Part shown: piece by piece, positions 1 through 31,519 of the stretch
How positions within the stretch are numbered: position 1 is the first letter of the stretch
How the letters are laid out: each line of letters starts with the position of its first letter
From: Alphaproteobacteria bacterium
GTDB taxonomy: Bacteria; Pseudomonadota; Alphaproteobacteria; UBA9219; RFNS01
NCBI GenBank assembly: GCA_009927055.1
Contig: RFNS01000177.1
Span: forward strand, 29,794 to 93,793
DNA: 64,000 bases
Reading direction: 5' to 3'
Position numbers and translations under genes: made by a program
Notes under the pieces: generated by a model
Told to the model about the DNA's origin: nothing
Seen by the model: only the letters and a program-made list of their open reading frames with translations
The model's database searches: none

Positions 1-593
1 ACAAGGGCCTGCACCTCTGATAATTTTTTTCCTGTCGCCTGATGATTAAGATAATTAGCCGCCATTTGCAGTTGCGCGGGCGAAAGGGGTTGCTGCGTCT
101 CAATCACCCGATTTTCGACCTGCCCATGCACCCCCACCAACACCACCAGCACCTGCCGCGGCGACAGCAGCACAAAATCAATCTGCCGCAGAGAAAAATC
201 GGTTTTGGGGGCCACCACCAAACTGGCACACGCCGCCAGCCCCGACAGCATGGTGGTGGTTTCATTCAGCACCTGCGGCAAACTTTTACCCGCCACCATC
301 GCTTGGCTCGACATTTGCTCTTGCTGCTCTTGGGTTAAATCGCCCACCTGTAGCAACCCATCGATGAACAGGCGCAACCCCAGGTCTGTGGGCATGCGGC
401 CCGCGCTGGTGTGCGGCGCAACCAAAAGCCCTCTTTCTTCCAGATCAGCCATCACCGACCGGATGCTGGCGGGTGATAAATGCATACGGGCCGAGATGAT
501 GCGGCTTCCCACAGGCTCGCCTGTTGTCAGATAACTGTCGATCAGCAGCCTGAAAACCTCACGCGCGCGGTCTGAAAGCTCAGAGATTTGCAT
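1..593 (-). CDS. hrcA: Heat-inducible transcription repressor HrcA, N-terminal part (C-terminus runs off window start)
   Basis: Reverse-complement translation from ATG at 593 gives MQISELSDRAREVFRLLIDSYLTTGEPVGSRIISARMHLSPASIRSVMADLEERGLL..., typical HrcA winged-helix N-terminus; ORF continues to position 1 without stop. Confidence 0.85.
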   Translation of the reverse strand, partial: MQISELSDRAREVFRLLIDSYLTTGEPVGSRIISARMHLSPASIRSVMADLEERGLLVAPHTSAGRMPTDLGLRLFIDGLLQVGDLTQEQQEQMSSQAMVAGKSLPQVLNETTTMLSGLAACASLVVAPKTDFSLRQIDFVLLSPRQVLVVLVGVHGQVENRVIETQQPLSPAQLQMAANYLNHQATGKKLSEVQAL

Positions 594-610
594 GAATTCT
601 ATCTAGGCCT

Positions 611-1912
611 TTGGCCGCCCTCCCTCAAGTCCTTAACAAAAGCTTAGTGATGCTGGCGCACAATACCAGCATGAGGATTATGGAATTCAGGGCCGATATC
701 AGCGATGCCGACCTGGTGCGCGAGCAGGATTTTATTTTGCGCCTGCGCCGCTGGCAGCGGCATCAGACCCCGCTGACGATGGTGAATGTGCTGCTGACCA
801 AACATCCCGCCCTGTTTGACGACAAAGAAAAAATTGCGGCTGTTTGTGCGTTTCTTGAAAACTATGCGGGCCAGCATCATGCCGAAATGCATGCCCTGAC
901 CATGGGCGATGTTTTTCTGGTTTTTCCGCCGCATCAGTTTTCAAAGCAGAAATTTTTGGCCGAATTGTCTGAGGCACTGACGCAGACATTGACATCGACC
1001 ACCCCAGATGACGTGAACAACATCATTGTCACCTACAATTTTCCGGCCGATTACACGCCGCTGCGCGAAAGTTTGAACCAGTCGATTGATGCCGTGCGCG
1101 CGCATCGCGATCTGCAGCCATCGCAAGCCACCCCGCAGCAACTTCTGCAAAGCGATTTGGCGCAAGGCAGCCTGACCGCGTGGAGCCTGAGCCAAATTGA
1201 AGGCTTGTTATCTGATCTGGATGTGAAACGATATATACGCGCGCAACCTCTTTACCGGCACACGGCGCAAGGCTGGCAGCCTATCGCCAAGGAATATTAT
1301 ATTGGCATTGAGGAATTGAAAAAAGAACGCTTCCCGCGTCTGAATGTGCGCGCGCCCGAAAGATTGTTTCTAGAGTTATGCAGCACACTGGATAAACGCC
1401 TGCTGAACGAAATTGCCCCGCAGCCCGCCTTGTGGGAAAACCAGCGCGTCCACCTTAATCTGGCGATGGAGACGGCGTTGACCGCGGGCTTTGCCCAATT
1501 CTGCAAAACGGTCGCGCGCGACAAACGCCAAAATATTGTGTTTGAATTAAACCGGTCCGATCTGCTGTTCGATTTTTCCACCACCCTGAATGTGATCGAT
1601 ATTTTGCGGCGCGAGGGGTTTGGCATTGTGCTGGATGGCATTCACCCCGAAATTCTGCCCTATTTCAACATTGGTCTGCTGCCGGTCGATGGATATAAAA
1701 TCAAGGTCAGCCGCGATCATTTCGAACCTCTGGCGCACGATGATGTGGTGCGCGCGCTTCACCATCTTCCGCACGATAAAATTATTTTCTATCGGTGCGA
1801 GCAGGAAGCGGCCCTGTCCATCGGGCAAAAACTGGGCATCGCCACCTATCAGGGTTGGCTGATTGATGATTTGGCGTTAGGGTTAGGACTCAATGCCACA
1901 GGACACCCATGA
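611..1912 (+). CDS. GGDEF-EAL tandem-domain protein with degenerate catalytic motifs in both domains (likely non-enzymatic c-di-GMP-related regulator/scaffold); start uncertain (alternative ATGs at 650/671/680)
   Basis: 433-aa ORF. Middle region reads ...ALTMGDVFLVFPP... where a GG(D/E)EF motif would sit (GGDEF -> TMGDVF). C-terminal region aligns to EAL-domain landmarks but with substitutions: FELNRSDL (EAL-start region), VLDGI in place of DDFGTG, KIKVS in place of KID, ATYQGWLI in place of (a)QGYlf. Confidence 0.55.
   Translation: MAALPQVLNKSLVMLAHNTSMRIMEFRADISDADLVREQDFILRLRRWQRHQTPLTMVNVLLTKHPALFDDKEKIAAVCAFLENYAGQHHAEMHALTMGDVFLVFPPHQFSKQKFLAELSEALTQTLTSTTPDDVNNIIVTYNFPADYTPLRESLNQSIDAVRAHRDLQPSQATPQQLLQSDLAQGSLTAWSLSQIEGLLSDLDVKRYIRAQPLYRHTAQGWQPIAKEYYIGIEELKKERFPRLNVRAPERLFLELCSTLDKRLLNEIAPQPALWENQRVHLNLAMETALTAGFAQFCKTVARDKRQNIVFELNRSDLLFDFSTTLNVIDILRREGFGIVLDGIHPEILPYFNIGLLPVDGYKIKVSRDHFEPLAHDDVVRALHHLPHDKIIFYRCEQEAALSIGQKLGIATYQGWLIDDLALGLGLNATGHP
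648..674. promoter_or_regulatory. Inverted repeat TGATGCTGG-N9-CCAGCATGA in hrcA upstream/divergent region (candidate operator; not canonical CIRCE)
   Basis: 9-bp arms with 9-bp spacer, 8/9 complementary, 55 bp upstream of hrcA ATG on opposite strand. Confidence 0.2.
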
Positions 1913-2020: not shown

Positions 2021-2088
2021 GCTGATCTTAATTTTTTACAGGTCTTTCCCCTTATGTGTCCCCACACTATCCTACACACGGAATCGTT

Positions 2089-2910
2089 ATGCCCTTCGAT
2101 CTTTCTCTTATCGCCATTCCTGCCCTGCTGCTGATTGTGGGGGGGCTTGCCGGAACTCTGGCCGGATTATTTGGCGTGGGCGGTGGCATTATCATGGTGC
2201 CGATGCTCTCCAGCGGTTTGGCCATGCTGGGCACCCAGCACGATACCGCCATGCACGTCGCTGTGGCCACATCGCTGGCCACTATCATTCCTACATCCTT
2301 AATGTCGTTTCGCACGCACATGAAGCAGGGCAGTGTTGATACAGCCATTCTGCGTGAAGCCGTGACATGGATTGTTCTGGGGGCCATGGCGGGCAGTTTT
2401 ATCGCCTCCCAAATCTCTGCAAAATATATTTCGCTGTTTTTTGTAGGCCTGTGCGGTTTTATGATCTGGCATTATCTGGCCAAAGATCACCTGAATGTCG
2501 CCCCCAGCTTTATGCCCGGCCCCATTGTGCGCGGGGTATTATGCCTTGGGATTGGGCTTTTTTCATCCATCATGGGCATTGGCGGAGGGGTTTTGGGCGT
2601 TGTGATGCTGACCGCCTTTGGCCTGCCCATTCATCGCGCTGTCTCAACCGCTGCGGCCTTTGGGTTGATTGTGGCCGTGCCCAGCACCATCATTAATGCC
2701 CTGCACGAGGTGGAGGGGTTTGTCCCCTTCGGCACCATTGGCACCATTCATCCCTTGGGCATTTTGTTACTCACCCCCACGGCCATGATCATGGCGCGCA
2801 TAGGGGCCAGGTGGGCGCATAAAATATCGGCCAAAAAACTGAAAGGTGCTTTTGTTATTCTCATCAGCATCATCGGGGCCAAGATGCTGATCAGCACTTT
2901 GATGTTTTAA
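2089..2910 (+). CDS. TauE/SafE (TSUP) family sulfite/anion exporter membrane protein
   Basis: Polytopic membrane protein with two GxGGG-containing repeats (GLFGVGGGIIMVP ... MGIGGGVLGV), 4+4 TM pattern typical of DUF81/TauE. Confidence 0.75.
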   Translation: MPFDLSLIAIPALLLIVGGLAGTLAGLFGVGGGIIMVPMLSSGLAMLGTQHDTAMHVAVATSLATIIPTSLMSFRTHMKQGSVDTAILREAVTWIVLGAMAGSFIASQISAKYISLFFVGLCGFMIWHYLAKDHLNVAPSFMPGPIVRGVLCLGIGLFSSIMGIGGGVLGVVMLTAFGLPIHRAVSTAAAFGLIVAVPSTIINALHEVEGFVPFGTIGTIHPLGILLLTPTAMIMARIGARWAHKISAKKLKGAFVILISIIGAKMLISTLMF

Positions 2911-7185: not shown

Positions 7186-7779
7186 TCAGGCCAGAATATT
7201 CAGGGCCGAGGCGCCAACATCGATAAAGCTGCCGGGTGCTTTGCTTGTCAGCATGCCGGTGATGACAGTGCTTGTGGGAATGACATTGGTCGTGTTGCGT
7301 CCTGCGGGGCGTTCAACCGTTTCATAATCAAACTTGAAGGTCTTCCCCATCGATAGCTGAATGACATAGTTGGGTTCTTTCGTGCGCGACTCGCCCACCG
7401 CGCGATCAACCTTCAGCACATACAGTTTGGGCTTCACATCCAGCTTGTTGGCCTGCAAATCATCAAAACGCTGTTTCAATTCCGATCCTTCGGCCGCACC
7501 ACTGTCAGCAATCAGGCGGCCTGTGCTGCGTTCCAGTAAACGAAAACGCATATTCACTTCTTCGTTGGTGGTATAGGCCATGCCCAGCGTGCCTTTGGTT
7601 TGCACGCTGAACGAGAAATTATCTTCACGGTCATTGGCGTTATCCAGGGCGCTGGCCACGTTCAGGCGGGTAAAATTGTTGCGCAGCAGGCCAATATAGC
7701 GGGCGTTGGCCAGCGTTTCACTGCGTTCATCAACGCTGCTTCGTGCCAAAACAAATTTTTCGCTGACTCTGTCAACCAT
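7186..7779 (-). CDS. Hypothetical protein (197 aa, no signal peptide, no recognisable domain)
   Basis: Intact ORF with coding-like composition; no family recognised by eye. Confidence 0.4.
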   Translation of the reverse strand: MVDRVSEKFVLARSSVDERSETLANARYIGLLRNNFTRLNVASALDNANDREDNFSFSVQTKGTLGMAYTTNEEVNMRFRLLERSTGRLIADSGAAEGSELKQRFDDLQANKLDVKPKLYVLKVDRAVGESRTKEPNYVIQLSMGKTFKFDYETVERPAGRNTTNVIPTSTVITGMLTSKAPGSFIDVGASALNILA

Positions 7780-27438: not shown

Positions 27439-28656
27439 GTGACTGGACAAGTGACTGTTAAGCAGCCTATATCCTTTTCAGGAAAAAAACTTAAGCAAAA
27501 CACCCATCTTGGTGCAAAAAATATGACCAAACCTCAACTCCTTTCATCATCCGAACACACGACATCTCCAATCCAGGAGGATGAGGTTTTGAGCACAAAT
27601 GTTTTGTCGCGACTCCAAGAAGTGACAAAACATCTTGAAAAAATTGATACCCAATTGACCAAAAATAACAAGCACCTTGAGAATATAGAAGGTTTGATAT
27701 GCTCGAAAATGAATTCGTCGGCTGCCAACAAAACTTCTTCACTTGTAAAGCGCCTTTTCTGGCCGCGCTTGGGCAACTTGAACCAATCGCCGCCTTGCCA
27801 ACTTCTGCTTGATGACAGCTATTTCAAAACTTCGCCCCCCCCGAAGGCGCCAAAAATTTCTCTTGTCACGCCATCGTTTCGGCAAGGCGCCTTTATCGAA
27901 CGAACAATCCTCAGCATCCTTCATCAGGATTATCCCAATCTTGAATATATTGTTCAGGATGGTGGATCGACCGATGATACCGTTGCGCATCTAAAAAAAT
28001 ATGAACATCGCCTGACATCGTGGGTGAGCGAAAAAGATGGCGGACAAACCAACGCCATTAATCGCGGCTTTGCCAAAACGGACGGCGAGATTATGGGCTG
28101 GCTCAACTCCGATGATCTGCTGCTGCCAGGCAGCCTGAACACGGTTGCCAACTTTTTTGCCCAAAACCCGCATGTGGACGTGGTCTATGGCCACCGCATC
28201 CTGATTAATGAGCATGACCATCAGATTGGGCGCTGGATCATGCCCAACCACAATCACGATGTTTTATCGTGGGCCGATTTTATTCCACAAGAAACCATGT
28301 TCTGGCGGCGCAGCCTGTGGGAAAAAGTGGGCGCCAGCCTGGATGAAAACTTTAAGTTCGCCATGGATTGGGATTTGATCCTGCGTTTTCGGAAAGCGGG
28401 CGCAAAGTTTGTGCGAATCCCCCGTTTTCTTGGCGCCTTTCGCATCCATTCTGCCCAAAAAACCTCGGCTGTTATTTCTGATATCGGCTTTAAGGAAATG
28501 GATATTCTACGCAAACGGGAAATTGGCTACGTTCCAGGTTATCCGGAAATACGCAAAAATCTGCTGATCTATATCTTGGAACATATTGCGCTGGATTACT
28601 CTTACCGCCTGTCGAGAAATTTCAAACCGCGCAAACCTTTTATGGTGATGGCCTAG
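27439..28656 (+). CDS. Family 2 glycosyltransferase with about 140-aa low-complexity/coiled-coil N-terminal extension (GTG start in track; alternative ATG about 27523)
   Basis: C-terminal 260 aa parallel 25730..26482 (VTPSFRQGAFIERTILSILHQ...DGGSTDDT...WLNSDD); N-terminal region low-GC. Confidence 0.65.
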   Translation: MTGQVTVKQPISFSGKKLKQNTHLGAKNMTKPQLLSSSEHTTSPIQEDEVLSTNVLSRLQEVTKHLEKIDTQLTKNNKHLENIEGLICSKMNSSAANKTSSLVKRLFWPRLGNLNQSPPCQLLLDDSYFKTSPPPKAPKISLVTPSFRQGAFIERTILSILHQDYPNLEYIVQDGGSTDDTVAHLKKYEHRLTSWVSEKDGGQTNAINRGFAKTDGEIMGWLNSDDLLLPGSLNTVANFFAQNPHVDVVYGHRILINEHDHQIGRWIMPNHNHDVLSWADFIPQETMFWRRSLWEKVGASLDENFKFAMDWDLILRFRKAGAKFVRIPRFLGAFRIHSAQKTSAVISDIGFKEMDILRKREIGYVPGYPEIRKNLLIYILEHIALDYSYRLSRNFKPRKPFMVMA

Positions 28657-28660
28657 ATTC

Positions 28661-31519
28661 ATGCTGGCTCTCGCACTCAGTTTTTTGTTGCTTATTTATT
28701 TCTCGATGGTCGGTTTTAGCGCGCTTGGTTTCACGCAATTAAGACAACGATTGATGATTAAACTGCTGCTGGCCCCTGCGGTGGGAATTGGGTTGGTGAT
28801 GGTCCCCATCAACCTGCTTCATTTTTTTAATTTACCTATCAGCACCATCTGCTGGCCTGTTTTTATGGCCACAATTTTTATCGCTATCTTGCTTCTGTTA
28901 AGGCAAAAACCTATTATCCACACGCATCACGTCATACGCGTGGGGCTCATTGCCCTCGCCGCCTTGCTGGTGGTGGGGTGGCCCATGTTGCTGTTCGGGC
29001 TTGACTGGCTTAGCTACACCAACGATGACATGGCCAATTATGTTCTGGGGGCGCAGCGTTGTCTGCTGCACGGCCTTCAAGACAGGCCACCTGCCACTGC
29101 ATTCTCAGAGCACACCGACTACACCGCCTTTTTCTGGTTCATGCATTGGTTTGGCGGGCACCGCGTGGGATCGGAGCAGATGATCGCCTATTTCTGGGGA
29201 TTAACCGGGCTAAACGGGCACCAGCTGTTTGTACCGATGATGAACTGCTTTCACATGGCGTTGGTCATGGCGGCCGGCGGGCTTGTGTCGGCCAATTTTT
29301 CGGGCTCACGGCAGGCTTATGTCACTCTTATTCTCATGGCTTTATCACCCCTCACAGGATTGGGCACCCTCTTTCAGCTGATCGCGCAACTGATGGGTTT
29401 ACCCGTTTTATGCGCTCTGCTGGCTCTCTCACACCGACTGGCACGGCCGACATCCTCGCACTTGGTCGGCCATATCTTGATCACCGCCTTGTTGTTCGGG
29501 GGTCTTTGCATCATTTACCCCGAAACCCTACCGTTTTATGTTCTCAGTGTCATTGTTTTTCTGCTGGCCATGACATGGCGCCGCGGGCGCACTCAAAACA
29601 CCTTACGCCTGCTCATCATTGGTAGCATCATTGCCTTGGGGAGCCTGCTGTTACTGAACGTCACTTTGGCGAACATTGTGCATTTCATGATCACGCAGGC
29701 ACAGTCGGGATCGAGCGCCCATGTGGTGCGTGGGCTGATCTTACCTTATTTCATGCTACCCACAGGGTTGCCCACTTTTTGGGGGATTTTGCCACTCACC
29801 GCCCATCTTCCCCTGCCCGACATCCTGAAAGATGTCGTGATGAATGGAATGATTCTTGTGGCCATAGCTCTTTTTGGTATCTTGCTCTGGCAACTGTTCA
29901 AACAAATAAAAAAACAAACCGTCTGCGCCATCACATCTCTTGTGATGCTTCTGCTGGGGGGTTATCTGTTCTACCAAGTTAGTGATTTTGGTCTTTTCAA
30001 GCTGTCGATGTTTATCCAGCCTTTTGTGCTGGGTGTCATGGCGATCTGGCTTTGTGAAAAGAAAAAACTTTTTTCTCCTCGCCGACAAAAAATCGTTCTG
30101 TTGCTGCTGTTGGTTCCAACCTTGGTGACTTATGGCGGCTATACGCTACGCAGCACGGGCACGATCAGCGGCAGTGCCAATGATGTGCCGCTTGCTAGCC
30201 TTAAAAAGGTCAACCAGCAATTTGCACAAACCATGGAAGAGGCCAAAGAAAAAGGCCTGAATCTTTTATGGTCAGATGCATCATGTACTGTGCTGGCTAA
30301 GTTTCAATCATTATACGCGCTGGGTGAATCTTTCCTCCTCCCCTCGCGGGATTTTCTGGGGAAACTTTTGGATCAAGCCACAGGCAAGCCTTCACCCCTC
30401 ATGAGTGAGGAAGATATTCGTGCAGGCCATGAGCTCGATCAGATTCACATCCATCAACGTCGCGTCCATCTGATGGATAATCATTCTGTTGTTAACCGGT
30501 TCAAGGTTGTCAACAACCTGGGCGATGAATTATCGCGGCGCGCCTTAATCACAACCAACCAATCACAAAGCTTTTATAATGCTTATTATGCCAACCATGA
30601 TGACGCCCCTTACTTTAGAATAGATACAAAACCGCGCAATCATCTTGTGTTTGTTTTTTCTGATTTCGGCAACCACTATTACCTGCATGATGTTAAAAAA
30701 ATTTCGTATTTTGAGTTAGAGCGAGACCCGATGTTTCCCGGCCGCCAGTTTGCAAGCATGGGGCAGTATCTTGTATTCTTTATGGTTGGCGCGCCCCAGC
30801 AACCCCGCGTTTTAATGGAACTGACCAGCACCATTCTTAAACACAAAGGCAGCCAGTTGCCCCAGCCCGTCATCTCAGGAACAGAGGAAACGGTGATGCC
30901 GTTTGTGGGGCGCGGCTCTGGCCGCATGGTCAGCGCGCCTGTGCAAGGCAAAATGATTGAAGGCGCGCCCTTTCTGGCCTTCGATATGCAATCGCCCCCC
31001 GAGCGCATGCCCATTCACCGCACAGGCCTGATGAACCTGTATCACCCTGAAATACCGCTTGATCTGCGTAACATCAGCGTGTTTGGACGCGATGTATCGA
31101 TTATCGACGACGAGGATTATGGCGCGTGGCAACGACCATCGTGGCTTGAAAAATTTCCGGCCGATCTGTCGCACAAACATCTGGAATATTCGGGCATTTA
31201 TGAGGATGGATGGCTGTCTGAACACAGTTTGTTTGTTTTATCACGCCCCGATAAAAATTCAGTCCTGCACATTCAAGGATTGATCCCTTTGGTAAAAAAT
31301 AGCCAATTCAGCACAACTCTGACTGTAAAAATAAATGGGAAGAATATGTTGGAACAACAATTAGCTTTGGGCGAGTTTCACTTCCGCATCCCGTCCGATC
31401 AGTTGCCCGAAAGCACAAGCTACCGCATTGAACTCATTTTCTCTGCCGCCCAGAAGCTGCCAGGCGATGATGCCCGCGTGGCCGTGGGCCAGCTGCACGC
31501 CATCGGGTTCAGGCCCTGA
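28661..31519 (+). CDS. Large polytopic membrane protein, putative GT-C-fold glycosyltransferase (YfhO/ArnT-like architecture: 12-15 TM N-terminal half plus about 450-aa extracytoplasmic C-terminal domain)
   Basis: 952 aa; many TM helices to about residue 480; conserved acidic pair in first extracytoplasmic loop (WLSYTNDDMANY); immediately followed by GtrB-like and GtrA-like genes. Confidence 0.45.
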   Translation: MLALALSFLLLIYFSMVGFSALGFTQLRQRLMIKLLLAPAVGIGLVMVPINLLHFFNLPISTICWPVFMATIFIAILLLLRQKPIIHTHHVIRVGLIALAALLVVGWPMLLFGLDWLSYTNDDMANYVLGAQRCLLHGLQDRPPATAFSEHTDYTAFFWFMHWFGGHRVGSEQMIAYFWGLTGLNGHQLFVPMMNCFHMALVMAAGGLVSANFSGSRQAYVTLILMALSPLTGLGTLFQLIAQLMGLPVLCALLALSHRLARPTSSHLVGHILITALLFGGLCIIYPETLPFYVLSVIVFLLAMTWRRGRTQNTLRLLIIGSIIALGSLLLLNVTLANIVHFMITQAQSGSSAHVVRGLILPYFMLPTGLPTFWGILPLTAHLPLPDILKDVVMNGMILVAIALFGILLWQLFKQIKKQTVCAITSLVMLLLGGYLFYQVSDFGLFKLSMFIQPFVLGVMAIWLCEKKKLFSPRRQKIVLLLLLVPTLVTYGGYTLRSTGTISGSANDVPLASLKKVNQQFAQTMEEAKEKGLNLLWSDASCTVLAKFQSLYALGESFLLPSRDFLGKLLDQATGKPSPLMSEEDIRAGHELDQIHIHQRRVHLMDNHSVVNRFKVVNNLGDELSRRALITTNQSQSFYNAYYANHDDAPYFRIDTKPRNHLVFVFSDFGNHYYLHDVKKISYFELERDPMFPGRQFASMGQYLVFFMVGAPQQPRVLMELTSTILKHKGSQLPQPVISGTEETVMPFVGRGSGRMVSAPVQGKMIEGAPFLAFDMQSPPERMPIHRTGLMNLYHPEIPLDLRNISVFGRDVSIIDDEDYGAWQRPSWLEKFPADLSHKHLEYSGIYEDGWLSEHSLFVLSRPDKNSVLHIQGLIPLVKNSQFSTTLTVKINGKNMLEQQLALGEFHFRIPSDQLPESTSYRIELIFSAAQKLPGDDARVAVGQLHAIGFRP

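Follow-up and report, generated by a model that had tools for sequence, protein, structure and literature searches.

A predicted cyclic di-GMP receptor with a GGDEF-like and a half-degenerate EAL-like domain from uncultured alphaproteobacteria

What function is left to a protein that resembles the enzymes of cyclic di-GMP (c-di-GMP) turnover but departs from them at many of the positions that define their active sites? This question is raised by an open reading frame (ORF) at 611..1912 on the forward strand of a 64-kb stretch of alphaproteobacterial contig RFNS01000177.1 (hereafter the window, meaning the whole stretch of 64,000 nucleotides). A first-pass annotation had described the product as a GGDEF-EAL protein with both active sites degenerate, encoded divergently next to hrcA, and had predicted a LapD- or FimX-like receptor or scaffold with neither cyclase nor phosphodiesterase activity. 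Our analysis favors, at slightly better than even odds (roughly 55%), a soluble stand-alone protein of ~413 amino acids (aa) with an eroded GGDEF domain and an EAL domain, which would serve as a c-di-GMP receptor without catalysis. The core of the earlier proposal thus survives as a prediction, while the EAL site proved to be half degenerate.

The ORF is a real gene because it has strong homologs (63 proteins, E down to ~1e-110). In the ORF listing its longest form is 433 aa, starting at TTG611, and a 100% identical NCBI protein, P0001, from a metagenome-assembled genome (MAG) begins at ATG650 (420 aa). We favor ATG671 as the start, because most homologs open with MRIWE, equivalent to MRIME at ATG671. 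Residues are therefore numbered from ATG671; adding 20 gives the 433-aa frame of the first-pass annotation. The protein has no transmembrane (TM) segment, with a maximum 19-residue Kyte-Doolittle mean of 1.12 compared to 2.43 in the neighboring TauE protein. No REC or PAS match was found in Pfam, and both the Pfam scan and the AlphaFold2 (AF2) model indicate that 413 aa accommodate just two domains. The earlier statement that the protein lacks a TM region and a sensory N-terminal domain was therefore correct.

671..1912, + strand: coding sequence of the GGDEF-like/EAL-like protein, likeliest start ATG671, 413 aa
671..1120, + strand: N-terminal alpha/beta domain, residues 1-150, modeled as a palm/ferredoxin-like fold whose elements follow one another as in GGDEF
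1163..1885, + strand: EAL-like domain, approximately residues 165-405, TIM-barrel-like fold

The EAL-like domain and its metal sites

The C-terminal domain matched Pfam EAL (PF00563) with 36.2 bits against a gathering threshold of 31.3, over residues 255-418 (433-aa numbering) and profile positions 58-233 of 236. Consistent with this, the family profile found the EAL domain of RbdA/PA0861 in the PDB (E 1.6e-7), with weaker EAL domains below it. Alignment of the C-terminal half of the family to Escherichia coli PdeL, DosP, PdeR, and CsrD by hhalign gave a probability of 97.7%, and Foldseek returned many EAL structures with E down to ~1e-8. Conservation was counted in 62 close relatives and in 46 distant, diverse relatives (17-37% identical), all 46 of which also match PF00563. 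By the Pfam criterion, the protein is a member of the EAL superfamily.

Active-site residues were mapped by two independent alignments, one through the PDB profile to RbdA and one through hhalign to PdeL, which agree with each other; the PdeL numbering was checked. The resulting positions are as follows.

1292..1306, + strand: E208-Y-Y-I-G212 (E/D-x-F-x-S in the family) on strand beta2, preferred equivalent of E-A-L-x-R; Glu kept, Arg lost
1310-1324, + strand: E214-E-L-K-K218, alternative equivalent of E-A-L-x-R, from hhalign and a non-significant HMMER alignment to PA3825
1457..1459, + strand: N263, equivalent to PdeL N200, metal-1 ligand, kept and invariant
1544..1555, + strand: E292-L-N-R295, the ExxE motif, equivalent to PdeL E232..E235; the metal-1 Glu E292 is kept and R295 replaces E235
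1634..1645, + strand: D322-G323-I-H for DDFG; D322 (PdeL D262, metal 1/bridging) is kept and invariant, G323 stands for D263 (metal 2), which is lost
1697..1705, + strand: K343-I-K345 for KxD; K343 (PdeL K283, catalytic Lys) is kept and invariant, K345 stands for D285, which is lost
1790..1801, + strand: Y374-R-C376-E377 for E-G-V-E; Y374 stands for PdeL E319, which is lost, and E377 (E322) is kept
1850..1858, + strand: Q394-G395-W396, equivalent to QGY/F; Q394 (PdeL Q339) is kept

Two classes of position emerged from the comparison with the relatives. N263, D322, K343, Q192, Q394, and G395 do not vary among the 62 close or the 46 distant relatives, apart from a single distant sequence with Glu at 394, and position 292 is always Glu or Asp. 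The lost positions vary, with G/S/A at 323, N/R at 345 (Asn in most relatives), and S/F/Y at 374, the last being the first Glu of EGVE, a metal-2 ligand described in the RocR literature as the general base. Beside it, Cys376 is invariant in the close family and replaced by Val/Ile in 7/46 distant relatives, and position 377 is acidic (Asp in 61/62 relatives, Glu in the window protein). Loop 6 is degenerate, reading DGIHPEILPY compared to DFG[T/A]GYSS. In the phosphodiesterase PA3825, the EAL Glu, the Asn, the acidic residue of ExxE, and the first Asp coordinate metal 1, and the second Asp, the Asp of KxD, and the Glu of EGVE coordinate metal 2 (PMC5301497). The window protein thus keeps the entire metal-1 set together with the catalytic Lys and has lost the entire metal-2 set, and the conservation counts show that the whole family shares this pattern. 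Invariance of the kept residues in close as well as distant relatives implies selection on the metal-1/phosphate site.

This pattern changes part of the initial picture of the site. LDGI for DDFG and KIKVS for KID (KxD) had been placed correctly, as both alignments confirm. The equation of ELNR with EALxR was a mis-assignment, because FELNR pairs with LELTE, the ExxE motif in PdeL and in the EAL domain of RbdA. Likewise, the view that the catalytic landmarks are replaced holds for the metal-2 set and the EALxR arginine and is overstated for N263, E292, D322, K343, Q394, and the Glu at the EAL position.

The assignment of that last Glu required additional evidence. The Pfam alignment begins after the EAL motif, and a sub-profile of residues 165-300 gave no match in the PDB. 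The AF2 model puts E208 on strand 201-211, so that in the beta1-beta2 hairpin its approximate counterpart on the other strand is Q192 (QP motif), and we read the canonical Q-to-E spacing as suggesting that these two residues face each other. Conservation at i, i+2, and i+4 around E208 is that of a strand face, and residues 213-220 are modeled as a helix. All 46 diverse relatives have the Glu of E208, and the 62 close ones have Glu or Asp there; position 214 is variable. With E208, the distances from Q to E and from E to N are 16 and 55 residues, with E214 they are 22 and 49, and in PdeL 14 and 59. We prefer E208 because of its conservation, strand position, hairpin register, and PdeL-like spacing, and because of the analogy to the ESF motif of TipF discussed below. 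A Glu occupies the EAL-motif position under either alignment, and the arginine position of EALxR is taken by G212 in the preferred register, in which the Arg is lost, and by K218 in the alternative one.

The N-terminal domain and its GGDEF-like fold

The AF2 model (pLDDT, the predicted local distance difference test, 91.1 over the full length and 89.6 over residues 1-155) places the N-terminal elements in the sequence alpha0 (12-30), beta1 (35-40), two helical segments (46-49 and 52-68), beta2 (72-75), beta3 (81-85), a helix (92-106), beta4 (119-124), and a long helix (128-148). In the model, the order alpha0, beta1, two helices, beta2-hairpin-beta3, helix, beta4, long helix corresponds to the palm order of GGDEF domains and class-III cyclases. 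Relative to the canonical GGDEF fold, the domain is without the C-terminal strands.

Structural searches with the full-length model point in the same direction. The best Foldseek matches in the PDB are tandem GGDEF-EAL structures aligned over ~440 columns (MorA 4rnf, E 3e-14, as well as RbdA and LapD), i.e., across both domains. With the isolated N-terminal domain, the natural matches that align over the greatest length are GGDEF domains (109-120 of 155 residues). Furthermore, an hhalign comparison with E. coli GGDEF domains is colinear over 111 columns, pairing M78-G-D-V-F82 with the G-G-D-E-F of DosC and the last helix with the AD..ALY.AK helix. Two stretches of the domain stand out.

725..760, + strand: E18-Q19-D20-F21-I22...R26-R27...R30, where conservation in the N-terminal helix is highest, an Arg-rich family signature with RxxxR spacing
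896..916, + strand: hairpin motif L76-T-M-G79-D80-V-F82 between beta2 and beta3, at the structural position of RxGGDEF

TMGDVF had already been proposed as the GGDEF signature, and both the AF2 model and the hhalign comparison support this placement on the beta2-beta3 hairpin of a GGDEF-like fold. In the family the hairpin reads M-S-N-G-D-x-F (M 59/62, N 55/62, G79 61/62, D80 62/62, F82 60/62), and in distant relatives the Asp alone of this motif is nearly invariant. The active-site motif GG(D/E)EF itself is absent: the window protein has M78-G-D-V-F82, and only Gly, Asp, and Phe are conserved in the family. On beta1, Asn39 is nearly invariant, and we infer from an approximate alignment that it occupies the position of the metal-binding Asp of cyclases. 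The RxxD I-site, which the first-pass annotation had suggested examining, is missing as well: positions 69-72 read HHAE, and none of the 62 family sequences has an R..D pattern there. Because MGDVF replaces GG(D/E)EF, the acidic ligand of beta1 is apparently Asn, and no I-site is present, the domain is not expected to synthesize c-di-GMP, and it certainly cannot be a cyclase. Several positions of the N-terminal helix are highly conserved (Q19 60/62, D20 61/62, R26 61/62, R30 61/62). The fold, together with the weak but colinear profile alignment, makes it likely that the N-terminal domain is an eroded GGDEF domain.

Predicted function and rival explanations

We propose that erosion has left the N-terminal GGDEF-type palm domain unable to make c-di-GMP. 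The EAL domain, which retains the complete metal-1 site (Glu, Asn263, Glu292, and Asp322), Lys343, the glutamine of the QP motif, and QGW, would bind c-di-GMP, probably with one divalent cation. Hydrolysis is predicted to be nil or extremely slow, because the three metal-2 ligands and the EALxR arginine are lost and loop 6 is degenerate. Ligand binding would then alter the conformation or the partners of the receptor, and the N-terminal domain, with its Arg-rich helix EQDF...RRxxR and its NGD hairpin, is a candidate output, partner-binding, or dimerization surface.

A precedent for such a site is TipF of Caulobacter crescentus, an inactive EAL protein that binds c-di-GMP and positions the flagellum (PMC3792480). 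In TipF the EAL motif reads ESF and the Asp-Asp pair has become Asp331-Lys332. The protein did not hydrolyze c-di-GMP over 24 h and binds it with a dissociation constant of 0.4 uM; its variants E211A, D331A, and K352A lose binding or function, and R215L and E396A are tolerated (PMC3792480). Since TipF is inactive and yet binds c-di-GMP, it shows that a site of this kind can serve as a receptor. In a comparison of motifs, the two proteins share several features: both are alphaproteobacterial, both have E-x-F at the EAL motif (ESF in TipF, E-[YF]-F in the family, EYY in the window protein), and both keep the first Asp and the catalytic Lys and lose the second Asp (D331-K332 and K352 in TipF, D322-G323 and K343 here). 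In contrast, TipF keeps the EALxR arginine (R215) and E396, where the family has Gly/Ser and Tyr/Ser/Phe. E396, tested in the TipF study as a phosphodiesterase-specific catalytic residue, presumably corresponds to the EGVE Glu. TipF, whose type is further marked by binding to FliG/PflI, also begins with a pair of TM segments and a coiled coil, where the present family has a soluble GGDEF-like alpha/beta domain. We considered orthology to TipF and rejected it on account of this difference in architecture; even the longer relatives (P0087-P0142) carry the soluble N-terminal domain and long linkers, without TM segments or a coiled coil.

The other known receptors are more distant in one respect or another. 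LapD of Pseudomonas fluorescens and Vibrio cholerae is an inner-membrane protein with a periplasmic domain, a HAMP domain, and an S-helix, none of which is present here, where the GGDEF-like domain opens the chain, and is 11-16% identical to the window protein in the Foldseek alignments. Its EAL site is described as lacking the metal ligands and binding c-di-GMP without metal, whereas the family described here keeps the metal-1 site. FimX of Pseudomonas aeruginosa and Xanthomonas is cytoplasmic, as is the window protein; it has N-terminal REC and PAS domains and QAF for EAL, and thus lacks the Glu kept here. The LapD-/FimX-like reading therefore stands as far as the theme of a two-domain receptor is concerned, and the kept metal-1 site brings the protein closer to TipF. 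In site logic the family most resembles TipF and, as a tandem of two dead domains, LapD and FimX. Compared to the canonical EAL phosphodiesterases (PdeL/YahA, RocR, PA3825, RbdA, and MorA), it shares the fold, homology, the metal-1 ligands, the Lys, and both Gln, and differs by the absence of the metal-2 ligands, the second Glu of ExxE, the EALxR arginine, and the DFG(T/A)GYSS loop 6. By architecture the protein is not of the LapD, FimX, or TipF type, and it is best described as an uncharacterized variation on the theme of degenerate GGDEF-EAL receptors.

Several observations weigh against this reading. GGDEF (PF00990) gave no match at E<=10 for the window protein and matched none of the 46 diverse relatives (0/46), one of which hits the unrelated GGDEF_2 model. 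The significant GGDEF profile match whose absence the first-pass annotation itself had named as a refutation was thus not found for the protein or for the 46 relatives, leaving the GGDEF half unproven. A local hidden Markov model built from E. coli GGDEF domains found nothing in the window, and matches of the whole-family profile in the PDB were confined to the EAL region; a cytochrome c555 repeat match to the N-terminal helix in this search was spurious and was disregarded. Foldseek results for the isolated N-terminal domain are not significant (best E 0.07; GGDEF matches with probability 0.6-0.7 and TM-score ~0.4), and the hhalign comparison with five E. coli GGDEF domains reached P 0.0076 and a probability of 5%. 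Of the two domains announced earlier, EAL is thus present above the Pfam threshold, while the protein is not demonstrably a GGDEF-family member by profile and its GGDEF half is placed at fold level. On the EAL side, the EAL-motif Glu is ambiguous, as the two weak sequence alignments choose E214. The EALxR arginine contacts the c-di-GMP phosphate in EAL structures, and it is absent under the preferred alignment, although TipF tolerates R215L; some degenerate EAL proteins (YdiV, CsrD, and BluF) do not bind c-di-GMP. Moreover, no canonical GGDEF or EAL gene occurs in the 64-kb window, and the receptor assignment is for the whole family a prediction from sequence.

These points also define the alternatives. 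The N-terminal domain might be unrelated to GGDEF, e.g., a ferredoxin-like module of the ACT or STAS kind fused to an EAL domain, in which case the name GGDEF-EAL would not apply. We regard this as rather unlikely, despite the failed profile searches, as GGDEF domains are the longest-aligned natural matches and the full order of GGDEF elements is present, including the N-terminal helix and the two helices between beta1 and beta2. In addition, xxNGDxF falls exactly on the signature hairpin, where hhalign independently pairs it with GGDEF, the full-length Foldseek alignments span both domains of MorA, RbdA, and LapD, and in tandem proteins a GGDEF domain normally sits directly upstream of EAL. 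A ligand-independent scaffold or anti-factor similar to YdiV/RflP or CsrD, which would contact proteins or the RNA machinery and leave c-di-GMP unbound, is unlikely in our view. Loss of the EALxR arginine and of loop 6 would suit such a role, as would an N-terminal domain unrecognizable by profiles, and among E. coli references it is CsrD that gives the best matches, weak as they are (NCBIfam, E 0.013, and local hmmsearch). In a 4-sequence search with the family profile, CsrD scored highest of the E. coli references (E 3e-8), and both of its domains are degenerate. However, its NCBIfam match lies far below the cut-off (13.8 vs. 663 bits), it has TM segments and a HAMP-like region, and the metal-1 Asn and Asp that are invariant here are not conserved in it (VTV, VNQAG), CsrD being the sole such reference checked. 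Invariance of the four metal-1 ligands and the Lys across distances of 20% identity would be difficult to account for if no metal/phosphate ligand were bound.

The same conservation could also be taken as a sign of remaining catalysis. According to this alternative, the protein is still a phosphodiesterase for c-di-GMP or pGpG that works with one metal at site 1 and Lys343, perhaps as a slow timer or trigger enzyme, and replaces the base or the second charge with, for example, Asp/Glu377, Cys376, or Arg295. The deep conservation of the metal-1 ligands, Lys, Gln192, and Gln394 exceeds what binding is known to require, and Cys376 and Asp377 are conserved beside the lost Glu. We nevertheless consider this improbable: all three metal-2 ligands are lost and loop 6 is degenerate, and the Val/Ile found at position 376 in distant relatives argues against Cys as a universal catalytic residue. 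TipF, in which only the second Asp is lost, is already inactive over 24 h. Mutation of any one metal-2 residue in RocR and TBD1265 reportedly abolishes activity, which likewise counts against a one-metal enzyme. The receptor prediction therefore remains our preferred reading, and the database label 'putative c-di-GMP phosphodiesterase class I' is probably wrong for the family.

Degenerate EAL and GGDEF proteins are common, and degenerate GGDEF-EAL proteins represent a recurrent route from dead enzymes to second-messenger receptors. The family contributes a soluble and very small example, in which the N-terminal domain has diverged past the reach of the profile searches run here. Two features deserve notice, the split between metal 1 and metal 2 and the restriction to Micavibrio-like lineages. 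Site 1 is conserved and site 2 erased over a deep phylogeny, separating the two cleanly, and the family is thus a natural test of whether a metal-1 half-site alone supports binding or catalysis. It also provides a candidate c-di-GMP effector for Micavibrio-like bacteria, none being described in the literature that we found. Micavibrio has a cNMP-EAL homolog of Bd1971 as another c-di-GMP component (PMC6717892). A tentative extension, which may well be wrong, is that the family constitutes an order-wide core c-di-GMP receptor of the epibiotic predatory Micavibrio-like and related uncultured alphaproteobacteria: a minimal soluble 'fossil' GGDEF-EAL protein with one retained metal site, combining TipF-like logic with a different architecture and using the GGDEF remnant and the EQDF...RRxxR helix as output to a step in cell cycle, polarity, motility, or predation.

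Family, neighboring genes, and local sequence

A word-indexed search returned 63 homologs of 385-420 aa with 28-47% identity (P0001 excepted, at 100%), and a second search of this kind, made with the alignment of diverse relatives, recovered only the same close members. When representatives of 50%-identity clusters were searched exhaustively with a profile, 442 of them matched at E<1e-30 and 969 at E<1e-10; among the matches listed, nearly all are ~400-430 aa long and match across both domains. All named sources are MAGs of Alphaproteobacteria, Rhodospirillales, or Rhodospirillaceae. A scan of GTDB species-representative genomes yielded 58 loci, several of them labeled Micavibrio or 'Bdellovibrionales'. 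The title 'Bdellovibrionales bacterium' is used by NCBI for the genomes of loci L008, L018, L031, L039, L040, L043, L048, and L051, and we suspect that it goes back to an earlier classification, which counted Micavibrio-like bacteria among the Bdellovibrionales. Among the homologs and cluster members looked up, no cultured or characterized member was found; all are MAG-derived and unnamed or generically named, being labeled either 'EAL domain-containing protein' or as the putative phosphodiesterase mentioned above. A search of the literature on Micavibrio and c-di-GMP or GGDEF returned nothing on this EAL-like family. In these searches the unstudied family was found only in uncultured Micavibrio-like alphaproteobacteria and related lineages.

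Within the family, the window protein is a divergent member, the closest non-identical relative being 45-47% identical. At several positions that hardly vary elsewhere in the family it departs from the consensus: Leu at 76 (Met in 59/62), Met at 78 (Asn in 55/62), Lys at 345 (Asn in 44/62), and Glu at 377 (Asp in 61/62). Among the distant relatives, P0087 (712 aa, from an ENA metagenome contig) has an N-terminal NGD domain followed by two tandem EAL-like domains, an internal duplication, and the long relatives P0097, P0142, and P0125 have long Ala/Pro-rich linkers between both domains.

The genes surrounding the window copy were compared with those of 64 distinct related loci. The following features lie near the gene in the window or recur, by clustering of flanking ORFs, near its relatives.

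3..593, - strand: 5' part of hrcA (first 197 codons; the gene leaves the window), TIGR00331 188.7 bits and Pfam HrcA
594..670, no strand: divergent intergenic region, without a CIRCE element
2056..2910, + strand: TauE/SafE-family membrane protein (Pfam TauE, E 6.8e-44), directly downstream on the same strand
7186-7779, - strand: the window's copy of a PPC-like repeat protein, 5 kb from the EAL-like gene
Related loci, divergent upstream: DJ-1/PfpI, 20 loci
Related loci, upstream: trpF, 17 loci
Related loci, upstream: pyrF, 14 loci
Related loci, downstream: PPC-like repeat protein, 28 loci, e.g., L029:5185-6636 (-), L012:6344-7078 (+), and L003:7084-7809 (+)

The divergent arrangement with hrcA, whose ATG lies at 593 on the minus strand, is as described earlier, when the distance was put at ~60-90 bp. 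Between the two start codons lie 77 bp if translation begins at ATG671, 56 bp with ATG650, and 17 bp with TTG611. This adjacency had been emphasized, and the gene might accordingly belong to the heat-shock regulon or regulate it. Apart from the short distance in the window, hrcA was found in the flanks of only one of the 64 related loci (L005, within 1.2 kb upstream and with a radical-SAM/BATS-domain gene in between), and is absent from those of the other 63; the upstream neighbor is more often DJ-1/PfpI or trpF. The CIRCE operator (TTAGCACTC-N9-GAGTGCTAA) gave 0 matches in the whole window with <=3 mismatches permitted. Because the linkage recurs in 1/64 loci and the window is without CIRCE, we reject it; a functional tie is very improbable and effectively refuted by synteny. 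The adjacency is incidental, hrcA is not part of the system, and the hrcA angle is without significance.

A TauE gene follows on the same strand in 15-16/64 loci; every one of these belongs to the closest clade, and the two genes are ~30-140 bp apart. An operon with TauE was considered and not adopted: the pairing is restricted to this clade and the other neighbors are housekeeping genes (DJ-1, trpF, and pyrF), and it was therefore treated as synteny. Within the closest clade, the pairing could reflect an operon or mere synteny. Other nearby genes in the window are housekeeping genes as well (purF, radA, PPDK, a class-II aminoacyl-tRNA synthetase, ClpB, and NuoD). As neighbors vary among loci and no operon is conserved, the gene looks like a stand-alone regulator.

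The PPC-like repeat family comprises proteins of 200-490 aa with weak PPC or Por_Secre_tail-like Pfam matches below the cut-off; in some related loci its gene is the immediate neighbor of the EAL-like gene and converges with it, and in others it follows TauE on the same strand. Loci L001 and L002 (GCA_037200005.1 and GCA_037975565.1) represent the same 1,828,711-bp contig in both assemblies, with slightly different gene calls. Genes for flagellin, FlbT, and FlaF are located there 3-4.5 kb upstream of the EAL-like gene, which we mention given the TipF analogy; this proximity is probably coincidental. Elsewhere in the window, a gene for a family-2 glycosyltransferase (27439-28656) is followed by a 952-aa ORF (28661-31519, +) that matches no Pfam family at E<=1e-4.

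With a G+C content of 52.7%, close to the 54.2% of the window, the EAL-like gene is not compositionally foreign. No convincing promoter was seen in the intergenic region 594-670. A perfect 7-bp inverted repeat (ATGCTGG-N9-CCAGCAT) at 650-672 holds both candidate ATG codons (650 and 671) in its arms; it is short enough to have arisen by chance, and it could also form a hairpin over the start codon or represent an operator.

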